DNA of 64,000 nt. It comes from an uncultured delta proteobacterium (lineage in GTDB: Bacteria > Desulfobacterota > RBG-13-43-22). Under the pieces are notes generated by a model. It made no database searches. It saw only the letters and a program-made list of their open reading frames with translations, and was not told the DNA's origin. How positions within the stretch are numbered: the stretch's first letter is position 1; the number at the start of each line of letters is the position of its first letter. Shown here piece by piece: positions 8,333 through 24,532 of the stretch. A program made the translations under genes and the position numbers. The stretch spans positions 192,001 through 256,000 of the forward strand of contig CAWDKY010000017.1 in NCBI GenBank assembly GCA_963802945.1, given 5' to 3'.

Positions 8333-8388
8333 AGCTAAAGAAAAAATCAGCCGGAGCGTTGTGATCGGCTGTATTGATTTTGTTAACC
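8333..8388 (-). mobile_element. Integron attC site 5 (short, R' mutated to TTTAGCT)
   Basis: Minus strand GGTTAAC (contains the TIR stop) AAAATCAATACAGCCGATCACAACGCTCCGGCTGATTTTTTC TTTAGCT. Confidence 0.65.
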
Positions 8389-9240
8389 GCCTATATTTTC
8401 AACAATCTTTTTTATACGCTCAGGTACACTCCAAGATTCTCTGACCTGCGCGTTACCCCTAGGTGCTGCTTTAAGCCTTTCAAGTGCATCATCCGAAAAT
8501 TGACGGCATTTTTCAATTAAATCCATAATCCTCTTCGCTTCTGCCCAAGATGATGAGGATTCAAGGCAACCAACGAGTGCATTTGAAATCTTAAACGCAA
8601 TCTGTGGCTTGGCAGCTAATAGCTCTATTATTTCCTTTGCAATATCCTTTGGTATGCGATCCTTAGCTTGAAGAGCTTGATATTTCCCTATGAAACCATA
8701 AGGATCAATTCCAACTTTTAAAGGGACAATAGGAACCTTACGCCCAATGGCCACACCAATTTCTTGATCCGTCCACTTACTTTCGTTAAATCCCGGAGTC
8801 AAGAAAGCCACAAGCGCGTCCATAGTCGTAAGAGCTATTTCAATTTCCTTCTGCCAATCCTTTGTTGGCTCAATATCTTCATGTGCAATAAAACATGCAA
8901 ACCCATACTTAACCAATTCAATTTTAATGTTTTTGACAGCAATTTTCTCTGAAGCAAGATGACTTAAAAATATGCGTGGTTGCTCAGGTGACCAGAAAGC
9001 TGGTTGTTCAGAGGATTCAAGTTCTGTCACAACACCAAGATGCTTTGCTAACTCCACTAAAGATTGATCACTGGCGTTATTAATCATATCCATGACATAA
9101 TCATCTCTATTATCTCCCCGCCATTCATCAGTCCATGGCAATTTAAATTGTTTTAGAGTTAAATCAATGATTGACCAGTTTTCTTTACCAAGTGCTGCAG
9201 ATGTTTCTTTAATGAGATGAATTCGCTCAGACGGTTTCAT
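8383..9240 (-). CDS. TIR-domain protein with an uncharacterised N-terminal domain, gene cassette (candidate anti-phage)
   Basis: IFLSH, FIAHEDIEPT, ESKWTDQEIGVA (catalytic Glu), DPYGFIGKYQA; visibly AT-rich. Confidence 0.85.
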   Translation of the reverse strand: MKPSERIHLIKETSAALGKENWSIIDLTLKQFKLPWTDEWRGDNRDDYVMDMINNASDQSLVELAKHLGVVTELESSEQPAFWSPEQPRIFLSHLASEKIAVKNIKIELVKYGFACFIAHEDIEPTKDWQKEIEIALTTMDALVAFLTPGFNESKWTDQEIGVAIGRKVPIVPLKVGIDPYGFIGKYQALQAKDRIPKDIAKEIIELLAAKPQIAFKISNALVGCLESSSSWAEAKRIMDLIEKCRQFSDDALERLKAAPRGNAQVRESWSVPERIKKIVENIGG

Positions 9241-10295: not shown

Positions 10296-12092
10296 ATGAA
10301 ACAGATACGCAATTTCAGCATTATCGCCCATATTGATCACGGCAAATCCACCCTGGCCGATCGGTTGATTCAATACGCCGGGCTGGTGGACCAGCGGCAA
10401 TTCCGGGATCAGATCCTGGATACCATGGACATCGAACGGGAACGGGGCATCACCATCAAGAGCAACACCGTTACCCTTCCCTATACCAATAAAAAAGGGG
10501 AAGAATTCGATCTGAACCTGATCGACACACCCGGTCATGTGGATTTTTCCTATGAAGTCTCCCGTGCCCTGGCCTCCTGCGAAGGGGTCTTGCTTTTGAT
10601 CGATGCCGCTCAGGGTGTGCAGGCTCAGACCCTGGCCAATATGTACGCCGCCGTGGAACAGGATCTGACCCTCATCCCGGTCATTAACAAAATCGATCTC
10701 CCTTCGGCCGATATTGAACGGGTCAAGGAAGAGATTGAAAACGATCTGGGCCTGGATTCCGAATCGGCCCTGCTGTGTTCGGCCAAGGAAGGGATCGGGA
10801 TTGAGGAAATTCTGGAGGCCATTACCGAACGGATTCCTTCGCCCAAAGGGAGCCGGGATGCCCCCTTGACCGCCCTGATCTTTGACGCCCATTATGATCC
10901 TTTTCGCGGGACCATTATCAGTTGCCGGGTCTTCAACGGATCGGTTCGTGCCGGGGATACGATTCGTCTCATGTCCAACGGGGCTACCTACCTGGTGGAA
11001 GAGGTGGGATTTTTTCGGTTGACGCGCGAGCCTCGAAAGGAACTTTCTGCCGGCGAAGTGGGGTATATTATCGCCGGCATCAAAACCGTCAGCGACACCC
11101 GCATCGGAGACACGATAACCCTTGATACCAATCCGGCCCCGGCGCCGTTACATGGTTTCAAAGAAGTCAAGCCCGTGGTCTTTTCCTCCATCTATCCCAT
11201 TTCATCCGAGGATTATCAGTCTCTGTCCGAAGCCCTGGAAAAATACAAGCTCAATGATGCCGCCCTGATCTATCAAAAGGATTCTTCCGCAGCCCTGGGG
11301 CAGGGGTTTCGCTGCGGCTTCCTGGGGTTGTTGCATCTGGAAATCGTTCAGGAGCGCCTGGAGCGGGAATATAACCAGTCTATCATTATGACCGTGCCCA
11401 GCGTCCAGTACCGCTATCATCTCAAGGACGGGGAGACGGTCATTGTCGATAACCCCCAATATTATCCCGATCCCATGACCATAGATTACTCCGAAGAACC
11501 CTTTATCCGGGCCACGATTTTGATCCCCGATACTTATTTAGGCAATATCATGAACCTCTGCCGGGAACGCCGCGGATTGAATCCCCAGATGCATTACCCC
11601 ACACCGGGCCGGGTGGAACTTAAATATGACCTGCCTTTGGCCGAGGTGATTTATGATTTTTACGACAAGCTGAAAAGCCTGACCCGCGGATACGGTTCTT
11701 TTGATTACGAGTTGATCGGCTATCGAGAAGCCGATCTGGTGAAACTGGATATCTTAGTCAACAGCGAGAAAGTGGATGCCCTTTCCCTGATGGTTCATCG
11801 GGATCGCGCCCGGGCCCGGGCGGTCCAGATCTGTGACCGGCTGAAAGATGAAATCCCCAGGCAGATGTTCAAGATCCCTATCCAGGGGGCCATCGGCGGT
11901 ACCATCATCGCCCGTTCGACCATCTCGGCCTTTCGGAAAGACGTCACCGCCAAATGTTACGGCGGGGACATCACCCGGAAACGAAAACTCCTTGAAAAGC
12001 AGAAAAAAGGCAAGCAGCGGATGAAGATGGTCGGCGCGGTTGAAATCCCCCAGGGCGCCTTTGTAGCCGTATTAAAGTCAGATACGGATTAA
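10296..12092 (+). CDS. lepA: Elongation factor 4 (LepA)
   Basis: [50 protein letters not shown]; start taken at MKQIRN. Confidence 0.98.
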
Positions 12093-12331
12093 CAGGTTGC
12101 TGAAACCGGGTACCGCCCTGAAGGGGTGGGTGTGAGACGAGATGTGGGGCGAACAAAAAGGCCCATCTATCCCGCCTTCGGCGGGATTGCCCTCATTCCT
12201 CCCCGCCTTTCGGCGGGGCAGGCTTATTGCGACGTACTTTTATGTACGACTCATTCCTCGGGATTTTGAGCGCCTTGTATCTGAACCTTTTTGAGCAACC
12301 TGTAAAATATGTGTTTTTCCGCAAACTGTTA
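12092..12331. repeat. Intergenic MITE-like repeat with nested mini-palindromes
   Basis: ACAGGTTGCT...AGCAACCTGT inverted ends; internal ATCCCGCCTTCGGCGGGAT and CCCCGCCTTTCGGCGGGG. Confidence 0.55.
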
Positions 12332-12619
12332 ATTAGAAAAAGTCACAAGCATCTGCCAATTTCTTTCCTTACTTTTTCCTGAAAAAGTGATTTATTATTT
12401 TGGGAAATCATGCAGATTTTCTACTGATAACCGTTGACCAGACGGTGGGAGATTCGGGTTCTTAACTTCCATCTTACAAGGCTGTTGAGAATAATCAACA
12501 AAGGGAGAAATGGTAAAAAAAATCGAAAGTATTAATGGTTAGCTATGGGAAAATTTAAGGCAGCAGAAAACCGATTTCCACAAGATATTGCGGTAAAAAA
12601 ATAATTAGCATACAATATA

Positions 12620-12648
12620 TTGACAAATTCCATAAAGTAGGATATAAA
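12620..12648 (+). promoter_or_regulatory. Sigma70-type promoter upstream of the phcB-like operon
   Basis: TTGACA-17 bp-TATAAA. Confidence 0.55.
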
Positions 12649-13054
12649 TTATAAGGATTATTGTAAAGATTCATGGTTAATGATTGAATTTATTAGAAAA
12701 TGTGGACTACAGATAAGTCGTCATCTCTTTGTTAAAGCTTTCTAAGAAGGAGATTAAATTCAAATAGTAAAAATTTCACTTTATGAAAAAGTGCACCGAA
12801 TACTCCAAGCGGGAGTAGAGGGAATTTTAGGAATAGGATTCGGATTAGTATTCTTATTTTTATGGGGTCGGCTAATTAGGTGAGGGATATGTCCTTGGTG
12901 TATGGGGATCATTCCCGTTACAAGAATAATTTGTGTCCCTGAGGTTGGAAGGCGGAGTTGTCTGGAATGGTCCAGGTTTAGTTTTTGAAAGTTTGAAAGA
13001 AAGTTGTGCGCCCGAATTCTCGATCTGCCGGTATGATGAAAGGAGGACACTGTA

Positions 13055-14710
13055 GTGAGCCAACGTTCTAAAGATCTCTCAACGCCTTGGTTAGGCAGTA
13101 AAGAGGAAAGCAGCCCAGACAGGCGCAGGACCATTGCGCCTGTTCCTTTTTTTAAAGACTCACCGATTGAAGGTTCTGCGACCGCTGAAATGAACACGTC
13201 TCCCTCCAACGAATTTATTATTATGGATAAATTGTTTGACAGAAGAAGTTATAGAGAAAGACGCATGTTTGCGCATAACGACATTGGAGAAAATTTTAGA
13301 AAAAACTCTATGGATCGAAGGATAATAAATAGAAGAAATACGCCTAGAGTTTTTGGCAATTTTAATGCGCAAATAAAAAGTTTCGGCAAACATAAAGTTG
13401 AAGCAGAAGTACTTAATATGGGTAACCGTGGAATATATATTGAAAGTAATAATTTTTTAGGATCAAAAGGAGCAGTGCTTGATATTTTGTTTAATATTGA
13501 CGGAGATAAATTAAAAATACAATCAACTGTAGTGTGGCAAAAAAAGGATGATTTGACAAACACGTATCGTTGCGGGTTAATGATAAACACCGAAAGGGAT
13601 AAAATAATTGCGCTAGAAAAAATGCTTTGGATGAGCAAAGAATATATAAGACAAATTGTAAGACCGCAGATTGAAAAAATGAATCTCAATGAAATTTTAA
13701 AACAAAAAATAATCGATTTTTTTAGAAATGACGTTAATACCTTTGCAAGACAATATTCAAAAAATGAGAAAGCGATTTTGAAGGGATTTTTAAAAAAGGA
13801 AGAAGCAAAGGATGTTGTTAGAGAATTGATAAACCAAATTGTGGAAAAAGGCGATTTGCTTTTTAATGATATAGAAGAAAGCAAGATTCTGTCAAAAATT
13901 AAAGAGATTTTCAGGCAGACCATAGGATGTTGGATATATCAGAGTGAATTGACGAGTCATGCTCTCAAGAAGCCAAGAGGGTATCCGGGTGATTACAAAA
14001 TGATAGAACTTGTTTATGACAATAAACTAATATCTAAGAAAATTGGACAATGTATGGATAGAATTTTTTTAGATAATGCATTTGCTGTAGCAATACGAAA
14101 TAGGAAAAAATGGATGGGAAACATATTAAAAGAGCAGATTAAAAAAGTAAAAATCAATGAAACGCTAAAAGTCATGAATGCTGCCTGCGGTTCTAGCAGA
14201 GAAATTAAAGAATTGTTTGAAAAAAAGATGCCGTGCCAAGGGAAAGTCATATTTTCTTTGATTGACCATGACCAAGAAGCTTTGGATTATACGAGGACCA
14301 GTTTGATGAAAGTGAAACCTAAGTGGGCAGAATTGGATTTGATAGAAGAAAATATTTTGAGATTAAGACCCGGCAATGCAAAGTATGTGAATAAATTTAG
14401 TGGATATAACCTTATCTATAGCATTGGATTAGCCGATTATCTGCCCGATAAAATACTGCTCATTTTTTATGAATTCTGTAAAAAGGTACTGGCTGATAAT
14501 GGATTTTTGGTGATTGCTCATAAGGATAAAGATAGATATGAACCTATACTCCATAGCTGGTATGTCGACTGGAATTTTATCCCTAGAAATAATCCGGAGT
14601 TTAGGGAATTGACGAGAAAAGTATTTGGCGATGATTACAGAATAGAAACAATATGGGAGCCTTCGGAGATCATATTTTTTTTAAAAATATCAAAAAAGCA
14701 GCGAGAATAG
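13055..14710 (+). CDS. PilZ domain + PhcB-like class I SAM methyltransferase (fatty acid methyl ester signal synthase family); true start probably ATG 13190 or 13223
   Basis: PilZ RRNTPR and NMGNRG; KPRGYPGDYKMIE, AIRNR, NAACGSSRE, IDHDQEAL, IYSIGLADYLPD, DWNFIPR. Confidence 0.75.
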   Translation: MSQRSKDLSTPWLGSKEESSPDRRRTIAPVPFFKDSPIEGSATAEMNTSPSNEFIIMDKLFDRRSYRERRMFAHNDIGENFRKNSMDRRIINRRNTPRVFGNFNAQIKSFGKHKVEAEVLNMGNRGIYIESNNFLGSKGAVLDILFNIDGDKLKIQSTVVWQKKDDLTNTYRCGLMINTERDKIIALEKMLWMSKEYIRQIVRPQIEKMNLNEILKQKIIDFFRNDVNTFARQYSKNEKAILKGFLKKEEAKDVVRELINQIVEKGDLLFNDIEESKILSKIKEIFRQTIGCWIYQSELTSHALKKPRGYPGDYKMIELVYDNKLISKKIGQCMDRIFLDNAFAVAIRNRKKWMGNILKEQIKKVKINETLKVMNAACGSSREIKELFEKKMPCQGKVIFSLIDHDQEALDYTRTSLMKVKPKWAELDLIEENILRLRPGNAKYVNKFSGYNLIYSIGLADYLPDKILLIFYEFCKKVLADNGFLVIAHKDKDRYEPILHSWYVDWNFIPRNNPEFRELTRKVFGDDYRIETIWEPSEIIFFLKISKKQRE

Positions 14711-14810
14711 GATGCGAAAATCTCTGCTGTCGGAATTTTATTAATACCAAAGTTAAAGAATCTCTTGGCAATACTCCCCTATAATAATTATTATTGCCGA
14801 GAAAAAAGGT

Positions 14811-17441
14811 ATGAAGGCTATAGACAGTAAAAAAATCGAACAGGACCCAATCTTCCTGGAGCGTTTAAAAAAAGAAGGGCGCGAGAGACTCCAGTCAGAA
14901 TTTCGTTACATCTTGATCCTGAGTTGTTTTATTTGGACGAGCTTCTACGGTCTTGATATCATCACCTCACCTGAACACCACCTGACTTTTCTGGGGCTGA
15001 GGCTGTTGGTGGTTCTCAACTATGTTATAGGGATCGTAGTACTTTCCTCCAAACTCGGGTCAAAAATTGGGGGACCTCTCTTAGTGTGGGAGTATTATAT
15101 TACCACCCTGTCGATCTCCATCATGACCACTTATATCGGCGGGTTCGACAGCAGCTATTATATCGGGATCGTGATGATTATTTTCATTTCAGGTCTATTT
15201 ATTCCTTTGGGCCTCCCTGAAACCGTTACCGGCGGACTGATGACATTGGTGAGTTATTTCGCGATAAACGCATTTTTCGGCCCACCCGAATCGGTCAAGA
15301 TCAACAAGGTCATTTTCCCGTTCTTTTTTATTTCGGGGGCGTTGGTCTGTACAATGTTCGGAATAAGAAGGAGTGAAAGGAACAGGCGCAGTGATCTCAA
15401 ATTGCGAATGCAGATCGAGAGGGCCAACGATGAACTCAAGGAGCTTGACCAGGCTAAAATGCGATTCTTCTCCAACGTCAGCCACGAGCTTAGAAGTCCT
15501 CTGACCCTTATTCTCGGACCTCTTGAGATGCTCCTTAAGGGCAAACAAGACCATCAGGAAATGCGCCCACTCCTCCAGGCGATGGAGGGCAATGCCCGCC
15601 GGCTGTTGCGACAGGTCAACACATTGCTTGATTTTGCCAAAATGGACGCCGGAAAGCTCGAATGTAATTATGAATACAGCAACCTGGCAAGGATCATTCG
15701 GGGATTAGCCGATGCGGCCAGACCTCATCTGATGAACCGGAAAATTGACCTGGTTATTGAAGGATTCGAAAATTTCCCAGATACGATCTTTGATCCGGAC
15801 AAAGTTGAGACGATGGCGGCTAACCTGCTGTCCAACGCAATCAAGTTTACTCCTGAAGGCGGCCGGATTACGATCAGGACCGCAGAAGAGGATGAAATAA
15901 TCTGGTTTGAAGTCGAAGACACCGGCATCGGTATCCCGGGGGACAAGCTTGAGGCTGTTTTTGAGCGGTTCATTCAAGTTGATGACAAGATGGACAGACG
16001 TCAAGAGGGAACCGGCCTCGGTTTGGCCATGGTCAAACAGTTGGCCAAGATCCATGCCGGCAGAGTGACGGTCCGTTCAAAGCTTGGCGAGGGGACGACC
16101 TGTCGTGTTGAACTCCCTAAACGACCCGATTCCAAAGTATTGGAGCGACGTCGGGTCGTCGGTCGCCGGCGCGAGGATCAGATATCCTATGCCAGGACCG
16201 TCGCTATGATCAGTACTCCCGCCGAGGAAAAATCAGAGAGCCACAAGGAAACGCTCCTGGCCGATGTCTTGAGAGCCCGGTTCGGGGAAAATGAGGATAT
16301 CGCTGAAAGCATTCGGCATAGGGCCCCATCGGATGCACAAAAAGTGCTGGTTGTTGATGACAACCCGGATTTGCGACTCTTTATTGCCAGTAATCTCGCC
16401 GATGATTACCAGGTTAAGGTTGCCAAGGATGGTATGGAAGGTCTTGAATTAGCGAGGCGTTGGTTGCCCGACCTGATCGTGTCGGATATCATGATGCCCC
16501 GGATGGATGGTTACGAGCTTACACGTCAGGTTCGAAAAGATCCATCCCTATCCCAGGTTCCGGTGATTCTGGCCACCGCCAAGTCCGGCGGGGAGGCCGT
16601 CGCGGAAGGCTTGGGTATAGGCGCTAATGATTACCTGGCTAAACCTTTTGAAATCAGGGAACTGAGGGCCAGAGTTTCGGCACAACTGCGTACGCATCGT
16701 TTGGAACGGAATTTGAGTGAACGAGATAGCCGATTAGCCGCCATTGGCCAGATGACCAGTGCTATCGTTCACGATTTGAAAAACCCACTTTCAGCGATCA
16801 TCGGGTTTGCTGAGATCTCCAGGCAGGATGTCCTAAGCGGTAAAGGGACTGATATGGTGATTCATGACCTGGAACCTGTAGTTAGCGAAGCCAATCGACT
16901 GGATCGGATGATCGCGGAGGTGCTCGATTTTGCCCGCGGCAGCTCCTCGGACCTGAATCTCGTGCCCACCGAGTTGGCGGTTTACCTGGAGATGGTTTGT
17001 CCGCCTTTGCAAAAAAAATTAGCGGCCATGGGAATCGAATTGATTTTAAAACATGAATCAGGCACGAACCTGCTTGTCCAGATCGATAATGACCGGATGT
17101 TGCGAGTGATCGAAAATCTGATTCGAAACGCCCAGGAGGCGATTTGGTCAGGTGATCAGAATCCAAAGGGTAAACACATCTGGATCACGACCAGTTGCGA
17201 TGAACGCTCGGTCGCCGTGCGGATTGCGGACGATGGTCCCGGGATTGCGAAGGAAATGGTGACGGATTTATTTAAGACCTTTGTCACCGGGAAAAAGAGA
17301 ACAGGAACGGGGTTGGGACTGGCCACCGTCCGCAACCTGGTAATCGCCCATGGGGGGGAGATCACGGTGGAACCTAAGGGTGCGGAGGGAGGGGCCGCTT
17401 TTCTGCTAAAGTTTCCGCGAATTACTAATGGTCAGCCGTAA
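14811..17441 (+). CDS. Membrane hybrid histidine kinase: multi-TM sensor-HisKA-HATPase-REC-HisKA-HATPase (PhcS+PhcR-like fusion)
   Basis: GGFDSSYYIG sensor motif; SHELRSPL, NLLSNAIKF, GTGLGL; REC VVDDN..SDIMMP..KPF; second VHDLKNPL, NLIRNA, GTGLGL. Confidence 0.9.
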   Translation: MKAIDSKKIEQDPIFLERLKKEGRERLQSEFRYILILSCFIWTSFYGLDIITSPEHHLTFLGLRLLVVLNYVIGIVVLSSKLGSKIGGPLLVWEYYITTLSISIMTTYIGGFDSSYYIGIVMIIFISGLFIPLGLPETVTGGLMTLVSYFAINAFFGPPESVKINKVIFPFFFISGALVCTMFGIRRSERNRRSDLKLRMQIERANDELKELDQAKMRFFSNVSHELRSPLTLILGPLEMLLKGKQDHQEMRPLLQAMEGNARRLLRQVNTLLDFAKMDAGKLECNYEYSNLARIIRGLADAARPHLMNRKIDLVIEGFENFPDTIFDPDKVETMAANLLSNAIKFTPEGGRITIRTAEEDEIIWFEVEDTGIGIPGDKLEAVFERFIQVDDKMDRRQEGTGLGLAMVKQLAKIHAGRVTVRSKLGEGTTCRVELPKRPDSKVLERRRVVGRRREDQISYARTVAMISTPAEEKSESHKETLLADVLRARFGENEDIAESIRHRAPSDAQKVLVVDDNPDLRLFIASNLADDYQVKVAKDGMEGLELARRWLPDLIVSDIMMPRMDGYELTRQVRKDPSLSQVPVILATAKSGGEAVAEGLGIGANDYLAKPFEIRELRARVSAQLRTHRLERNLSERDSRLAAIGQMTSAIVHDLKNPLSAIIGFAEISRQDVLSGKGTDMVIHDLEPVVSEANRLDRMIAEVLDFARGSSSDLNLVPTELAVYLEMVCPPLQKKLAAMGIELILKHESGTNLLVQIDNDRMLRVIENLIRNAQEAIWSGDQNPKGKHIWITTSCDERSVAVRIADDGPGIAKEMVTDLFKTFVTGKKRTGTGLGLATVRNLVIAHGGEITVEPKGAEGGAAFLLKFPRITNGQP

Positions 17442-17494
17442 CCGTCCGCCTCGTTATCTTTTTTAATTCGATCATCCATAGTGAGAGTGAAGAT

Positions 17495-18613
17495 ATGGAA
17501 ACAGCCAGTCAGATTCTTGTCGTTGAAGACGATCCGATGACCAGCCGTTTGCTGGCCACGATCCTTACCCGGCTGGGATACAACGTAGAAACCGCCTTTG
17601 ACGGGATTGATGGTTTGGAGAAAGTCGAATCTTCTTCTCCAGACCTGATATTACTCGACCTCAAGCTACCCAGAATGAATGGGTATGAAGTTGCCCGCCG
17701 ATTGAAACAGGCGGATCAAACGAAAATTATTCCAATCGTCGTGATCTCATCCTTTGCCGAGGTGGAAAACCGGATCGCGGCCTTTGAGGCGGGAGCGGAT
17801 GATTTTTTATCAAAGCCAATCGATCAGGTCGAGCTTCGGGCCAGGGTTCAGTCGCTTTTGAAGGTCAAGAGGTTCAATGATTACATGATCAGCCATCAGA
17901 AAATCCTCGAGGCCGAAGTTGACAGAAGGACCCAGCAACTGCGCCAGGCTTTTGAGGAGTTAAAAAATGCATCAGAAAAGATCAAACAGGCCTCACTCGA
18001 TACCACATTCCGCCTTGCACAGGCGGTCGAAAGCAAAGATGAAGAAACGGGAGGCCATATTAAGAGGATCGGATACTATTCCACCGCCGTTGCCAGGGTC
18101 ATGGCCCTTCTGCCCCAAGACATCGAGAGCATTCTCTATGCCGCACCGATGCATGATATCGGCAAGATCGGTATTCCGGACCGGATTCTGCTCAAATCGA
18201 GATCACTAAATGACGAGGAATGGAAAATCATGAAGATGCATACCGTCATCGGGGGAAGAATCCTTTCTAGTTCGGACTCGTCCGTCATTCAGATGGCCGA
18301 ACAGATCGCCCTGACTCATCATGAAAAATGGGATGGATCCGGATATCCCAATGGATTAAAGGGTTCCAATATTCCTCTCTGGGGACGAATCTCCGCGATC
18401 GTCGATGTTTTTGATGCCCTGACTACCAATCGGCCTTATAAAAAAGCCTTTTCAATCGATCAGTCATTGGAAATTTTGAATGAGGGGAAGGGGACCCATT
18501 TTGATCCGGAGGTTTCCGATGCTTTCTTCTCAATCCAAGAAGAGATACTATCGATCCGCAGGGAGTACGAAGATCCAGTTTCCGAAAAGAATAGGGTAGC
18601 TTGGTTGGATTAA
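17495..18613 (+). CDS. REC + HD-GYP response regulator (RpfG-like c-di-GMP phosphodiesterase)
   Basis: VVEDD, LLDLKLP, KP; MHDIGK, HHEKWDGSGYPNGL, DVFDAL, RPYK. Confidence 0.93.
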   Translation: METASQILVVEDDPMTSRLLATILTRLGYNVETAFDGIDGLEKVESSSPDLILLDLKLPRMNGYEVARRLKQADQTKIIPIVVISSFAEVENRIAAFEAGADDFLSKPIDQVELRARVQSLLKVKRFNDYMISHQKILEAEVDRRTQQLRQAFEELKNASEKIKQASLDTTFRLAQAVESKDEETGGHIKRIGYYSTAVARVMALLPQDIESILYAAPMHDIGKIGIPDRILLKSRSLNDEEWKIMKMHTVIGGRILSSSDSSVIQMAEQIALTHHEKWDGSGYPNGLKGSNIPLWGRISAIVDVFDALTTNRPYKKAFSIDQSLEILNEGKGTHFDPEVSDAFFSIQEEILSIRREYEDPVSEKNRVAWLD

Positions 18614-18920
18614 AGGCAACTTTAAAAAAAGGATAAGATTTCTAAAACCTAACACGGAAAACGGGAATTCTATAAGATTCCTGTCAATAGAAAAAAACCT
18701 GATCGGCTTATATATCCGCCGGCCTTTCCTTTAGGGTAAGGGACGGCCCTTCTTTTTGAGCACACTTCAAAGCCTACTCGCTATTGCAAACTCACATTCA
18801 ATGATGACCATTTAGGAAGTCGTCACCCATGAGATATCTTGACATTCTCTGGAGGATCAAATATTTTTGAAATAAGAAATTAACCTTGACGAATCGAGCC
18901 ATTCTTTTTGTAAGTCCAAA

Positions 18921-20037
18921 ATGAGCAATAACACATTAGCTGGGCTTTATATCCATGTTCCCTTCTGTCTGAGTAAATGCCCCTATTGTGATTTTTATTC
19001 CACCATGGACAACAAACTGATTCCCTTGTGGTTGAAGGCCCTGGAGAAAGAACTGGCGTTTTATCAAGGACATTCTCCTCCTTTGATACGCTCTATTTGG
19101 GGGAGGAAGTCCATCGAGGCTATCCGAACAACAAATAGAAAAAATATTTGAGCTGATTCACGGCTGCTTTCATTTTGAAGCGGATCCGGAGATTACCATC
19201 GAAGCCAATCCCAATGATTTGAATCCCTCTAAGTTAAGAAGGTATCGCAATTTGGGCGTCAATCGGATCAGCCTGGGGGTTCAATCCTTTGACGATCGGG
19301 AGTTATCATTTTTAAGAAGACGGCATACAGCCAAGGAATCGGAAAAAACCCTCAACTGGATTCGCGAAGACGGTTTTAAGAATCTTGGCATTGACCTTAT
19401 CTACGGTCTTCCTGAGCAAACGAAGGAGCAATGGCTGGCCAGTCTGAATAAGGCCCTGGCTTTCCAGCCCGAACATCTGTCTTGTTATCAATTGACCATT
19501 GCCAAGGGGACCTTATTCTGGGGAATGAAAGAAAAAGGCCGCCTTCAGTCGATAAGCGAGGCGGACGAAGAAACATTTTTTCTGACTACCTCCCAATTTT
19601 TAGAAGATCGCGGTTATATTCACTACGAAATTTCCAATTTTGCCAGACAAGAAAACTATTTTTCAAGGCACAATCAAAAATACTGGCAGAGACGGCCTTA
19701 TCTGGGATTGGGACCTTCGGCCCATTCCTTTCAGGAAAACCGCCGTTGGTGGAACCTCCGGTCCCTTAACCGCTATTGCCGGGCATTGGAAGAAGGAAGA
19801 CTCCCGATAGAGGAGCAGGAAGTCTTAACTCAAGACCAGGTGCAAATGGAAGTCATCAGTCTGGGATTACGGACAAAGGCCGGGTTGGATCTCAATTGTT
19901 TGGGGGAAAAAAAGGAGGTAAAAAAAATGCTGCCAAGACTTGTTGAAAACGGATGGATATCCATCTCAGCTAATCACCTAATTCCCACCCTAAAGGGATT
20001 TCTGGTGGCCGACCGTCTGCCTTTATTCTTTGATTGA
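18921..20037 (+). CDS. hemW: Radical SAM heme chaperone HemW (HemN-like), frameshift in a G run near 19100
   Basis: LYIHVPFCLSKCPYCDF (CxxxCxxC), NRISLGVQSF, DLIYGLP, YEISNFA, HNQKYW. Confidence 0.88.
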
Positions 20038-23215: not shown

Positions 23216-24532
23216 ATGAAAATCAGTGTTTTCGGCTTGGGGTATGTAGGGACCATCAGCGCGGCCTGCTTAGCCCAATTGGGCCATGAGGTGATTGGGG
23301 TGGATGTCAATCCCAATAAGGTCCGGATGATTGAGCAAGGTCAATCCCCGGTTATGGAAGCAGAAGTCGGTCGGATTATTGCTGAACAAACCAAAGCACA
23401 AAGGTTAAAGGCCACTGATAAGGGCGCTTGGGCTTTTGCCCGGACGAATCTGAGTCTGGTTTGCGTGGGAACTCCAGGAAAAGATAATGGAGCCATTGAC
23501 TTAACGTATGTTCGTCGGGTTTTTGAGGAGATGGGTGACTACTTATCTTCCAAGCCCCATTTCCATTGGATTGTCTTAAGAAGCACCGTCTTGCCGGGAA
23601 CAACCGAACAGACCCTGATCCCAATCCTGGAAGAAAAATCCGGGAAATCGGCAGGAAAAGATTTTGGGGTCTGTTTTAATCCGGAATTTTTACGCGAAGG
23701 AAGTTCGGTTTGGGATTTTTTTAATCCCCCTAAGACCGTAATCGGGCTTTTAACCTCTCATGATAATCCCCCAATGCTTTCTCTTTATGAATCTCTTTCT
23801 GCTCCGGTGATCAAGACCTCGATCCGGGAGGCTGAACTGGTCAAATATTTAGACAATGTCTTCCATGCCTTAAAAATCTGTTTTGCCAACGAGATTGGGA
23901 AGGTCTGTCAGGCTTTAAAGGTTGACAGTCATGCGCTCATGAATATTTTTATACAAGACACCAAATTGAATATTTCTCCTATGTATTTAAAACCCGGTTT
24001 TGCCTTTGGCGGCTCCTGTCTGCCGAAGGATACACGGGCCTTGCTTTATATGGCCAAGAGCCTTGATCTCGAATTACCGGTGCTTCAGGCCATCCTGCCC
24101 AGTAATGAAGCTCAACTTCGAGAAGGACTTCGCCTCATCCTTAAAACAAAAAAGAAGAAGGTGGGTCTGTTGGGCTTGAGCTTCAAAGAAGGAACGGATG
24201 ACCTAAGGGAAAGCCCTTTAGTCCTTTTGGCCGAGACCCTCCTGGGAAAGGGTTTTGATCTCAGAATTTATGATCCTCAGGTATTCCTTGGCAATCTTTT
24301 CGGAACCAATAAAGATTTTATTGAGCGCATCATCCCCCATCTGGGTCAGTTGCTTACCCAGGACTTAGAAGGGCTGCTGACCCATGCCGAGGTCATCGTC
24401 ATCGGTTCAAAAATTCAAGGGGTTTCGTCATTGAGAGATTCCCTTCGGGACGATCAGGAAATTATCGATTTAGTTCGGGCCTTTCCGGAAAATAGAGGCT
24501 TTAAAGGAAGGTACCAAGGAATAAGCTGGTAA
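23216..24532 (+). CDS. UDP-glucose/GDP-mannose 6-dehydrogenase (AlgD-like)
   Basis: GLGYVG, CVGTP, NPEFLREG, FAFGGSCLPKD, GLSFKEGTDDLRESP. Confidence 0.95.
   Translation: MKISVFGLGYVGTISAACLAQLGHEVIGVDVNPNKVRMIEQGQSPVMEAEVGRIIAEQTKAQRLKATDKGAWAFARTNLSLVCVGTPGKDNGAIDLTYVRRVFEEMGDYLSSKPHFHWIVLRSTVLPGTTEQTLIPILEEKSGKSAGKDFGVCFNPEFLREGSSVWDFFNPPKTVIGLLTSHDNPPMLSLYESLSAPVIKTSIREAELVKYLDNVFHALKICFANEIGKVCQALKVDSHALMNIFIQDTKLNISPMYLKPGFAFGGSCLPKDTRALLYMAKSLDLELPVLQAILPSNEAQLREGLRLILKTKKKKVGLLGLSFKEGTDDLRESPLVLLAETLLGKGFDLRIYDPQVFLGNLFGTNKDFIERIIPHLGQLLTQDLEGLLTHAEVIVIGSKIQGVSSLRDSLRDDQEIIDLVRAFPENRGFKGRYQGISW

Follow-up and report, generated by a model that had tools for sequence, protein, structure and literature searches.

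A candidate Phc-type signal synthase and sensor cassette with a putative c-di-GMP output in an uncultured delta proteobacterium

In the diffusible signal factor (DSF) pathway of Xanthomonas, the signal synthase RpfF is of the enoyl-CoA hydratase type. The fatty-acid-type signal of this pathway is sensed by the hybrid kinase RpfC, which controls RpfG, a protein that joins a receiver (REC) domain to an HD-GYP domain; the RpfG family is described in the accessible part of an HD-GYP census preprint (bioRxiv 10.1101/2021.11.05.467447). In the Phc system, PhcB is the methyltransferase needed for the 3-hydroxymyristic or 3-hydroxypalmitic acid methyl ester (3-OH MAME/PAME) signal, and PhcS senses that signal, according to the available portions of two papers (PMC7694676, PMC6989110). 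A 2026 review, in its accessible sections, mentions the Phc system for Ralstonia only. Here, we analyze a three-gene locus (the trio) of an uncultured delta proteobacterium (GTDB Desulfobacterota, RBG-13-43-22) that resembles both systems in part and that may connect a Phc-type signal to cyclic di-GMP (c-di-GMP). The locus lies in assembly GCA_963802945.1, contig CAWDKY010000017.1, positions 192,001–256,000 of the forward strand; this whole stretch of 64,000 nt is referred to as the window, and coordinates are positions within it. The three genes are as follows:

13055–14710, plus strand: gene 1, a PilZ domain, a helical linker, and a class I S-adenosylmethionine (SAM) methyltransferase of the PhcB family; 551 aa from the GTG at 13055, 495 aa from the conserved ATG at 13223
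14811–17441, plus strand: gene 2, a PhcS-type membrane sensor, HisKA/HATPase (H225), REC (D559), and HisKA/HATPase (H654); 876 aa
17495–18613, plus strand: gene 3, REC (D55) and HD-GYP, an RpfG-family response regulator; 372 aa

The open reading frames (ORFs) are separated by 100 and 53 bases, which bears out the claim of a preliminary description of this DNA that the three are real, co-oriented, and closely spaced genes; the motifs that it quoted for them are all present in the translations. With moderate confidence, we interpret the trio as a Phc-type signal synthase and sensor cassette that would have c-di-GMP turnover as its output. Like the trio, the phcBSRQ loci of Ralstonia, Cupriavidus, and Paraburkholderia (taken from loci L090 and L002) place a methyltransferase gene ahead of a membrane sensor kinase gene, have a homologous catalytic part and sensor membrane domain (by reciprocal best hits), and carry a REC-kinase module after the sensor. 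They differ from the trio in several respects: gene 1 belongs to another subfamily and has a PilZ domain with an RxxxR motif, whereas the PhcB N-terminus lacks such motifs; the sensor and the REC-kinase module are one polypeptide in the trio; and the last gene of the trio encodes a REC-HD-GYP protein instead of PhcQ. Gene 3 has the architecture of RpfG, but, in contrast to the RpfC-RpfG system, the putative synthase of the trio is a methyltransferase and its sensor domain is of the PhcS type.

The Phc loci used for comparison were reached through a plasmid tblastn search, which led to a Paraburkholderia graminis locus (L002) encoding a methyltransferase of 468 aa, a kinase of 445 aa, and two response regulators. 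A genome scan with this methyltransferase gave 80 loci, nearly all from Burkholderiales as judged by title, including one of Ralstonia pickettii (L090) and several of Cupriavidus necator. The four ORFs of the R. pickettii locus (463, 453, 377, and 333 aa) stand in the phcB-phcS-phcR-phcQ order, and their domains fit. Gene 1 aligns with R. pickettii PhcB at 23 per cent identity over 315 aa (BLASTP, E = 8e-20) and shares with it the motifs KPxGYxGDY, RNR, CG..EI, GL.DYL.DK, and EW/DW; an alignment with the PhcB-like protein of Paraburkholderia agrees with this (BLASTP, E = 5e-19). When profiles of 72 PilZ-methyltransferases and 18 PhcB proteins were compared with hhalign, they matched with a probability of 99.7 per cent (E = 3e-25) over residues 290–546 of gene 1. 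Additionally, phcB is the sole significant match of gene 1 in the R. pickettii genome (2e-15), and PhcB searched in the host genome finds gene 1 first (3.7e-16), with the next match at 0.007. Several gene 1 homologs carry the JGI label 'extracellular factor (EF) 3-hydroxypalmitic acid methyl ester biosynthesis protein'.

The domains of gene 1, numbered from the GTG, are as follows:

13328–13588, plus strand: PilZ domain, residues 92–178, with R94-x3-R98 and N121-M-G-N-R-G126; from Pfam and a modeled barrel with a predicted local distance difference test (pLDDT) score of 85–95
13595–14143, plus strand: helical region, residues 181–363, with the motif K306-P-R-G-Y-P-G-D-Y, which is KPLGYAGDY in PhcB
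14144–14707, plus strand: Rossmann-fold methyltransferase core, residues 364–551; from Pfam, profile comparison, model, and fold search

Both Pfam matches exceed their cut-offs (PilZ at residues 92–178, 22.6 bits against 22.5; Methyltransf_20/PF12147, 24.3 bits against 21). An AlphaFold2 model built on 72 homologs (mean pLDDT 82.9; predicted template modeling score, pTM, 0.78) consists of a disordered stretch (residues 1–90), a beta-barrel (99–177), a helical part (181–363), and a Rossmann fold (370–547). Residues K306, P307, G309, Y310, G312, D313, R350, G379, R382, E383, D404, and D406 are invariant in the alignment of 72 sequences. No NCBIfam family matched gene 1, and a search of its sequence against PDB gave no match at E up to 1. 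In the fold search with the model, the top-ranked structure was 3ocj, from a Bordetella protein whose function is unknown; those below it were mostly small-molecule (natural-product) O- and C-methyltransferases, with some protein N-terminal methyltransferases. The latter, together with weak matches to the CheR SAM domain in relatives, are what would be expected if gene 1 were an enzyme that methylates its partner sensor protein in the manner of CheR-like adaptation, and such an enzyme would equally show tight pairing or fusion with its receptor. We nevertheless regard a receptor-modifying role as very improbable: the prevalence of small-molecule enzymes among the closest solved folds after 3ocj speaks against it, as does the homology to PhcB, the maker of the 3-OH MAME/PAME signal in the accessible text of two studies (PMC7694676, PMC6989110).

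The putative sensor, gene 2, yields Pfam matches in the order HisKA-HATPase, REC, HisKA-HATPase, with the phospho-acceptors H225, D559, and H654 present, and a hydropathy scan places its membrane segments between residues 34 and 186. Two of its parts are compared with Phc proteins here:

14910–15380, plus strand: PhcS-type integral membrane sensor domain, residues about 34–190; from profiles, reciprocal searches, and hydropathy
16344–17420, plus strand: internal REC and second kinase module, PhcR-like in architecture and without specific kinship to PhcR

Residues 47–437 of gene 2 are collinear with R. pickettii PhcS (26 per cent identity) through the membrane region. Gene 2 is the only match of PhcS residues 1–225 in the host genome (9e-11), and phcS is the only match of gene 2 residues 1–200 in R. 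pickettii (1.4e-7). In local profile comparisons, the gene 2 membrane domain matches 25 PhcS domains with a probability of 98.5 per cent (E = 4e-15), with reversed-sequence controls at 2 per cent or less. A weak MASE8 match (E = 0.004, below the cut-off) is common to gene 2 and the Paraburkholderia PhcS-like kinase. These reciprocal and profile searches identify the membrane domain of gene 2 as a sensor domain of the PhcS type, as had been proposed. Farther along the protein, residues 512–869 are collinear with PhcR (25 per cent identity, E = 1e-16). A separate REC-kinase ORF of 393 aa, located in the host genome but not in the window (C43:5129–6211), matches Ralstonia PhcR (residues 5–366) better than gene 2 does.

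Gene 3 matches REC and HD_5/HD in Pfam. Its residues 152–360 align with an HD-GYP enzyme of known structure (PDB 4mcw, 'metal dependent phosphohydrolase'; E = 3e-66) with every HD-GYP motif that was checked by eye kept: E183, H188, H220-D221, H275-H276-E277, and G283-Y-P are in place, and D55 is present in REC. The match to the NCBIfam NosR-family model NF053512 (188 bits) is below the cut-off of 400. The earlier assignment to a REC-HD-GYP protein is sound, and gene 3 is an RpfG-family regulator with intact catalytic motifs. In the accessible part of the HD-GYP census preprint (bioRxiv 10.1101/2021.11.05.467447), Xanthomonas RpfG is without a key histidine, whereas gene 3 keeps the full catalytic residue set; PmGH is counted there among the HD-GYP enzymes that carry E185, and the N-terminal domain of its family is GAF. 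The HD-GYP domain of the PmGH-type enzyme (PDB 4mcw) aligns with that of gene 3, but the regulatory domain is REC in gene 3 and GAF in the PmGH family. The host genome has nine GGDEF matches above the cut-off, which implies that c-di-GMP is made in this organism.

Gene 1 offers a second candidate contact with c-di-GMP in its PilZ domain. All 72 sequences of the family alignment have R94 and R98, and 71 of them have G126. An RxxxR PilZ domain beside an effector that it possibly controls is also the arrangement of BcsA, Alg44, YcgR, and MapZ-CheR1, so far as the accessible text of two publications describes them (10.1101/814665, PMC12564702). In that same text, the word 'methyltransferase' is used only for CheR and no PilZ-PhcB-type fusion is mentioned; the word is absent from the accessible part of the HD-GYP census preprint (bioRxiv 10.1101/2021.11.05.467447). 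Our literature search, outside whose coverage lay most subscription journals and supplements, found no description of a PilZ-PhcB fusion or of a cassette such as the trio.

PhcB itself may retain a trace of this domain. Residues 1–130 of R. pickettii PhcB (L090, 6001–6390) were modeled as six strands and a helix with a low pLDDT of 62.8, and all 22 top-ranked solved folds for this model are PilZ proteins, with weak E-values of 2.5e-3 to 2.4e-2; they include PP4397, YcgR, BcsA, MrkH, Alg44, MotI, VCA0042, and PlzA. The PilZ motifs RxxxR and D/NxSxxG are absent from the PhcB consensus, and the hhalign comparison of the gene 1 family with PhcB aligned only the catalytic parts, not the N-termini. 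The modeled fold gives a hint that PhcB may be a PilZ-methyltransferase whose PilZ domain has degenerated. An adaptive R22C substitution in PhcB, outside the methyltransferase domain, alters responsiveness to cell density, as stated in the available portion of that study (PMC6989110); R22C falls within the N-terminal region, so that the suggested PilZ-like fold offers a lead on this result.

The association of synthase, sensor, and c-di-GMP enzymes was also found well beyond the trio. The family is large: among 1.84 billion representative proteins, 2,832 match at E of 1e-3 or better, and the count falls to 1,274 clusters at 1e-10 and to 207 at 1e-30. We examined 77 distant metagenome loci; in 35 of them, the sequence continues for 2,300 bases or more past the methyltransferase gene. 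A membrane kinase gene lies directly downstream on the same strand in 32 of these 35 loci, which are of the gene 1 subfamily; if a flank of only 700 bases is required, the count is 33 of 63. Among 401 genomes of the phylum, 47 have the PhcS-type domain and 36 have the methyltransferase, and in 26 of the latter a gene with the PhcS-type domain is directly downstream of the methyltransferase (25 by coordinates and G217 by a local hidden Markov model), which is the phcB-phcS order. Specifically, proteins that combine the membrane domain with kinase and REC occur at 13 loci of the phylum, fusions of the membrane domain to HD-GYP occur in two copies each at L207 and L208, and the domain is further fused to SpoIIE and to PAS-GGDEF-EAL. 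In the sister genera, all six genomes searched have a PhcB-like methyltransferase with a cyclic nucleotide (cNMP)-binding domain, and at all five assessable loci it lies beside a protein that has a PhcS-type membrane domain fused directly to HD-GYP. The N-terminus of this HD-GYP protein shares 28 per cent identity with PhcS across 195 aa (E = 3e-11), and its membrane domain matches that of gene 2 with a profile probability of 98.0 per cent. As far as sequences can establish it, these fusions independently tie together the synthase, the sensor domain, and c-di-GMP enzymes, and the link proposed for the trio is upheld by its recurrence in other genomes, both in gene order and as fusions.

Four further arrangements were observed in this family. 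At L211 (G196:C11, 2625–5183), a single protein of 852 aa comprises a PhcS-type membrane domain, PAS, GGDEF, and a PhcB-family methyltransferase. At L209 (G364:C1, 773–6084), a PhcB-family methyltransferase without a recognized N-terminal domain is followed by two PhcS-type membrane-domain proteins, one fused to a SpoIIE phosphatase domain and the other to PAS-GGDEF-EAL. The metagenome locus L163 (7410–14115) encodes a double-PilZ methyltransferase of 650 aa, a protein of 1,183 aa with seven transmembrane segments (7TM), GAF, kinase, REC, and kinase, and a REC-kinase of 394 aa; the 1,183-aa protein has the kinase-REC-kinase build of gene 2 with a different sensor domain. In two small genomes of one family (G385 and G262), a fragment of an HD-GYP gene, in each case at the edge of the stretch examined, lies directly upstream of a PilZ-methyltransferase and sensor kinase pair (L197, 6502–6999; L198, 2–403).

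The single-protein arrangement at L211 would suit a local circuit better than a broadcast. It is among the features that would fit cell-autonomous sensing of lipid or membrane state, whereby the substrate of gene 1 would be a fatty acid or a lipid of the membrane, the PhcS-type domain would monitor this membrane component in the same cell, and HD-GYP would adjust c-di-GMP accordingly. The sensor domain is almost wholly membrane-embedded, and the synthase would be gated by intracellular messengers across members of the family (through PilZ, cNMP-binding, or REC domains), both of which agree with this possibility. For PhcB and PhcS, the sole studied relatives, the product is however an extracellular diffusible signal in the accessible parts of the literature (PMC7694676, PMC6989110), and we consider the cell-autonomous alternative unlikely, although deserving of some weight.

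Several observations weigh against reading the trio as a Phc-type signaling cassette. The identity of gene 1 to PhcB is only 23–24 per cent. In a quick IQ-TREE phylogeny of 63 catalytic domains (midpoint root; support only from the Shimodaira–Hasegawa-like approximate likelihood ratio test, with a careful search unfinished), gene 1 groups with PilZ-type and short forms, outside of the PhcB clade, and nine PhcB sequences form their own clade (support of 100), which is grouped with cNMP-type enzymes across a branch with a support of 95. By these comparisons, gene 1 is a homolog of PhcB in a sister subfamily; the preliminary description, which had called it PhcB-like, was correct about the catalytic homology, which the reciprocal best hits confirm, but the quick tree does not place gene 1 in the PhcB clade. 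Because the identity is low and the subfamily is separate, the PhcB substrate is not safely carried over to gene 1. Its second PilZ motif is N-M-G-N-R-G, with a glycine for the serine of D/NxSxxG, which sets it apart from the PilZ-gated enzymes named above; the serine is present in 62 of the 72 family sequences, and glycine in five, including gene 1. The PilZ assignment has behind it the intact RxxxR, the modeled barrel, and a Pfam score just above the cut-off, with the second motif altered at one position. A likeness of gene 2 to PhcR had also been proposed, and it extends to the REC-HisKA-HATPase architecture but fails in reciprocal searches: the best match of PhcR in the host genome is another gene (C43:5129–6211, 4e-24) with gene 2 ranking 7th, and PhcR ranks 57th of 115 matches when the C-terminal half of gene 2 is searched in R. 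pickettii.

Additionally, the usual partner sensor of the gene 1 subfamily is not of the PhcS type but a HisKA_7TM-GAF kinase: five of the seven metagenome partner kinases scanned carry HisKA_7TM, all five with GAF matches. A relationship between HisKA_7TM and the PhcS-type domain was considered and ruled out (profile probability of 6.6 per cent or less). HD-GYP is found within 5 kb in only 4 of the 77 distant metagenome loci, and no genes for acyl-chain supply flank the trio.

The two remaining points of this kind concern the history of the locus, and they bear on whether genes 2 and 3 first existed as a two-component pair for a different stimulus, with gene 1 inserted upstream later and functionally unlinked. 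The GC content of gene 1 is 33.8 per cent (32 per cent at third codon positions), in comparison with 50.7 per cent in gene 2, 48.3 per cent in gene 3, and 52.6 per cent in lepA; the base composition of gene 1 is foreign. Moreover, one genome of the genus (G002) has a pair of gene 2-like (67.5 per cent identical) and gene 3-like (72 per cent) genes elsewhere (L214, G002:C149, 3307–9190), preceded by a gene whose product, 638 aa or longer, combines a hydrolase-like N-terminus with a split methyltransferase domain of class I and has no similarity to gene 1. Given the difference in base composition and the unrelated methyltransferase of the G002 pair, gene 1 may be a later arrival, and the synthase and sensor may not share a long history of co-evolution. 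A late and unlinked insertion would also agree with the habitual pairing of the gene 1 subfamily with 7TM-GAF kinases. The G002 upstream gene is again a methyltransferase, however, which looks like replacement of a synthase and not like indifference, and synthase replacement is what this locus may represent. Furthermore, PhcS-type kinases also follow PilZ-type enzymes elsewhere in the phylum, in the gene 1 subfamily (L195, L196, and L212) and in a sister branch (L197 and L199), and the trio is kept at 84–90 per cent identity in four other loci (L013, L109, L110, and, in part, L108). We therefore consider the absence of a functional link quite improbable.

Conservation within the genus is narrow. 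Of 13 further genomes in the genus, only G005 has an ortholog of gene 1 (89 per cent identity), and the order at its locus L013 is the same: lepA, gene 1, gene 2, gene 3, hemN, and smr. The full trio is also present in metagenome contigs L109 and L110, and contig L108 ends within gene 2. Because the trio recurs in L013, L109, L110, and in part in L108, its arrangement is more than chance; the synteny that the preliminary description had put forward as a check is real but rare. In two other genomes (G004 and G008), hemN and smr come immediately after lepA, and in G012 the site holds other genes, including an ABC transporter. Since the lepA-hemN site differs among these genomes, the trio is an insert in a variable site.

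Two features at the left side of this insert precede the conserved part of gene 1:

12093–13054, no strand: AT-rich spacer between lepA and gene 1, 962 bases, GC of 39.7 per cent; left edge of the insert
13118–13153, plus strand: terminator-like hairpin, an 11-pair stem and a T run, between the GTG and the conserved ATG, within the unconserved N-terminal extension

Similarity among the five related loci (the window, G005, and three metagenome loci) starts sharply at the ATG at 13223 (M57), and in L109 and L110 this ATG has a ribosome-binding site of its own; the GTG at 13055 is preceded by a good AAAGGAGG site. Because the similarity begins at 13223, the conserved start of gene 1 is probably this ATG and not the GTG, and the conserved protein is probably 495 aa long. 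The hairpin recurs in G005 (L013) and L108, where a single G-C pair has become G-U, and is absent from L109 and L110. It matches no Rfam family and may act as an attenuator or terminate a transcript that comes from upstream. An Rfam search of window positions 11900–19400 at E up to 1 gave nothing above threshold. Sub-threshold matches to aceE-II (22.4 bits against a cut-off of 100) and mir-2813 (24.2 against 70) were taken as chance, so that no riboswitch was found in the long leader. Promoter and terminator scans gave counts near those of shuffled sequences (21 against 12.5±3.1 and 11 against 7.9±3.4), and the hairpin at 13118 is their one noteworthy result. Among the sequencing runs listed, none of RNA holds this DNA, and the shares in DNA runs are small (0.16 or less).

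The upstream neighbor of the trio is lepA, and on its 3' side are a hemN-like gene, smr, ytfJ, and an ATP-grasp gene on the opposite strand. A polysaccharide locus (UDP-glucose dehydrogenase, sugar transferase, and a TPR protein) starts at 23216. The preliminary description had named this exopolysaccharide locus as a plausible target of the trio, but only position ties the two together and the intervening genes lie on both strands. The ytfJ, ATP-grasp, and UDP-glucose dehydrogenase genes are 3' of the trio in G005 also, and in the stretches examined of G004, G008, and G012 neither the trio nor these three genes were found. The hemN/hemW-like radical SAM gene (18921–20037) is apparently frameshifted: residues 1–51 of its G005 ortholog match the frame 18921–19073, and residues 60–372 match another frame at 19096–20034. 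The gene may be truly broken, or the assembly may be in error here. A gene on the minus strand (8383–9240), some 4 kb upstream of the trio, encodes a TIR_2-domain protein of 285 aa (E = 6.7e-15).

If the trio is the Phc-type cassette that we favor, its operation can be outlined as follows. Gene 1 would methylate a small hydrophobic carboxylate with SAM, yielding by analogy with PhcB a hydroxy-fatty-acid methyl ester, and c-di-GMP bound to the N-terminal PilZ domain would gate this activity. The product would enter or cross membranes and be sensed by the PhcS-type domain of gene 2, whose first kinase module (H225) would phosphorylate the internal REC (D559) and so set the activity of the second kinase module (H654). 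The second module, in turn, would phosphorylate D55 of gene 3 and turn on the HD-GYP phosphodiesterase, and the lowered c-di-GMP would feed back, positively or negatively, on the PilZ domain of gene 1, closing the loop. The product may act between cells (quorum sensing) or only within one cell.

The trio presents a Phc-like synthase-sensor pair in an unrelated uncultured lineage, joined to c-di-GMP at both putative ends, by a PilZ receptor and an HD-GYP output. If this interpretation is true, a lipid-like signal would feed straight into the main control of sessile versus motile life. The fusions across the large family point to one circuit logic that has been reused many times, with HD-GYP, GGDEF-EAL, SpoIIE, and, once, the methyltransferase itself. 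We tentatively propose that Phc may be one specialized branch of a very large, undescribed class of modules, in which a messenger-switched synthase of a methyl-ester-type signal (through PilZ, cNMP-binding, or REC domains) is combined with a membrane-embedded receptor of its product that drives HD-GYP, GGDEF-EAL, kinases, or PP2C phosphatases. The module of this host would then be a closed c-di-GMP loop, and PhcB would be a member of the class that has lost its PilZ motifs.

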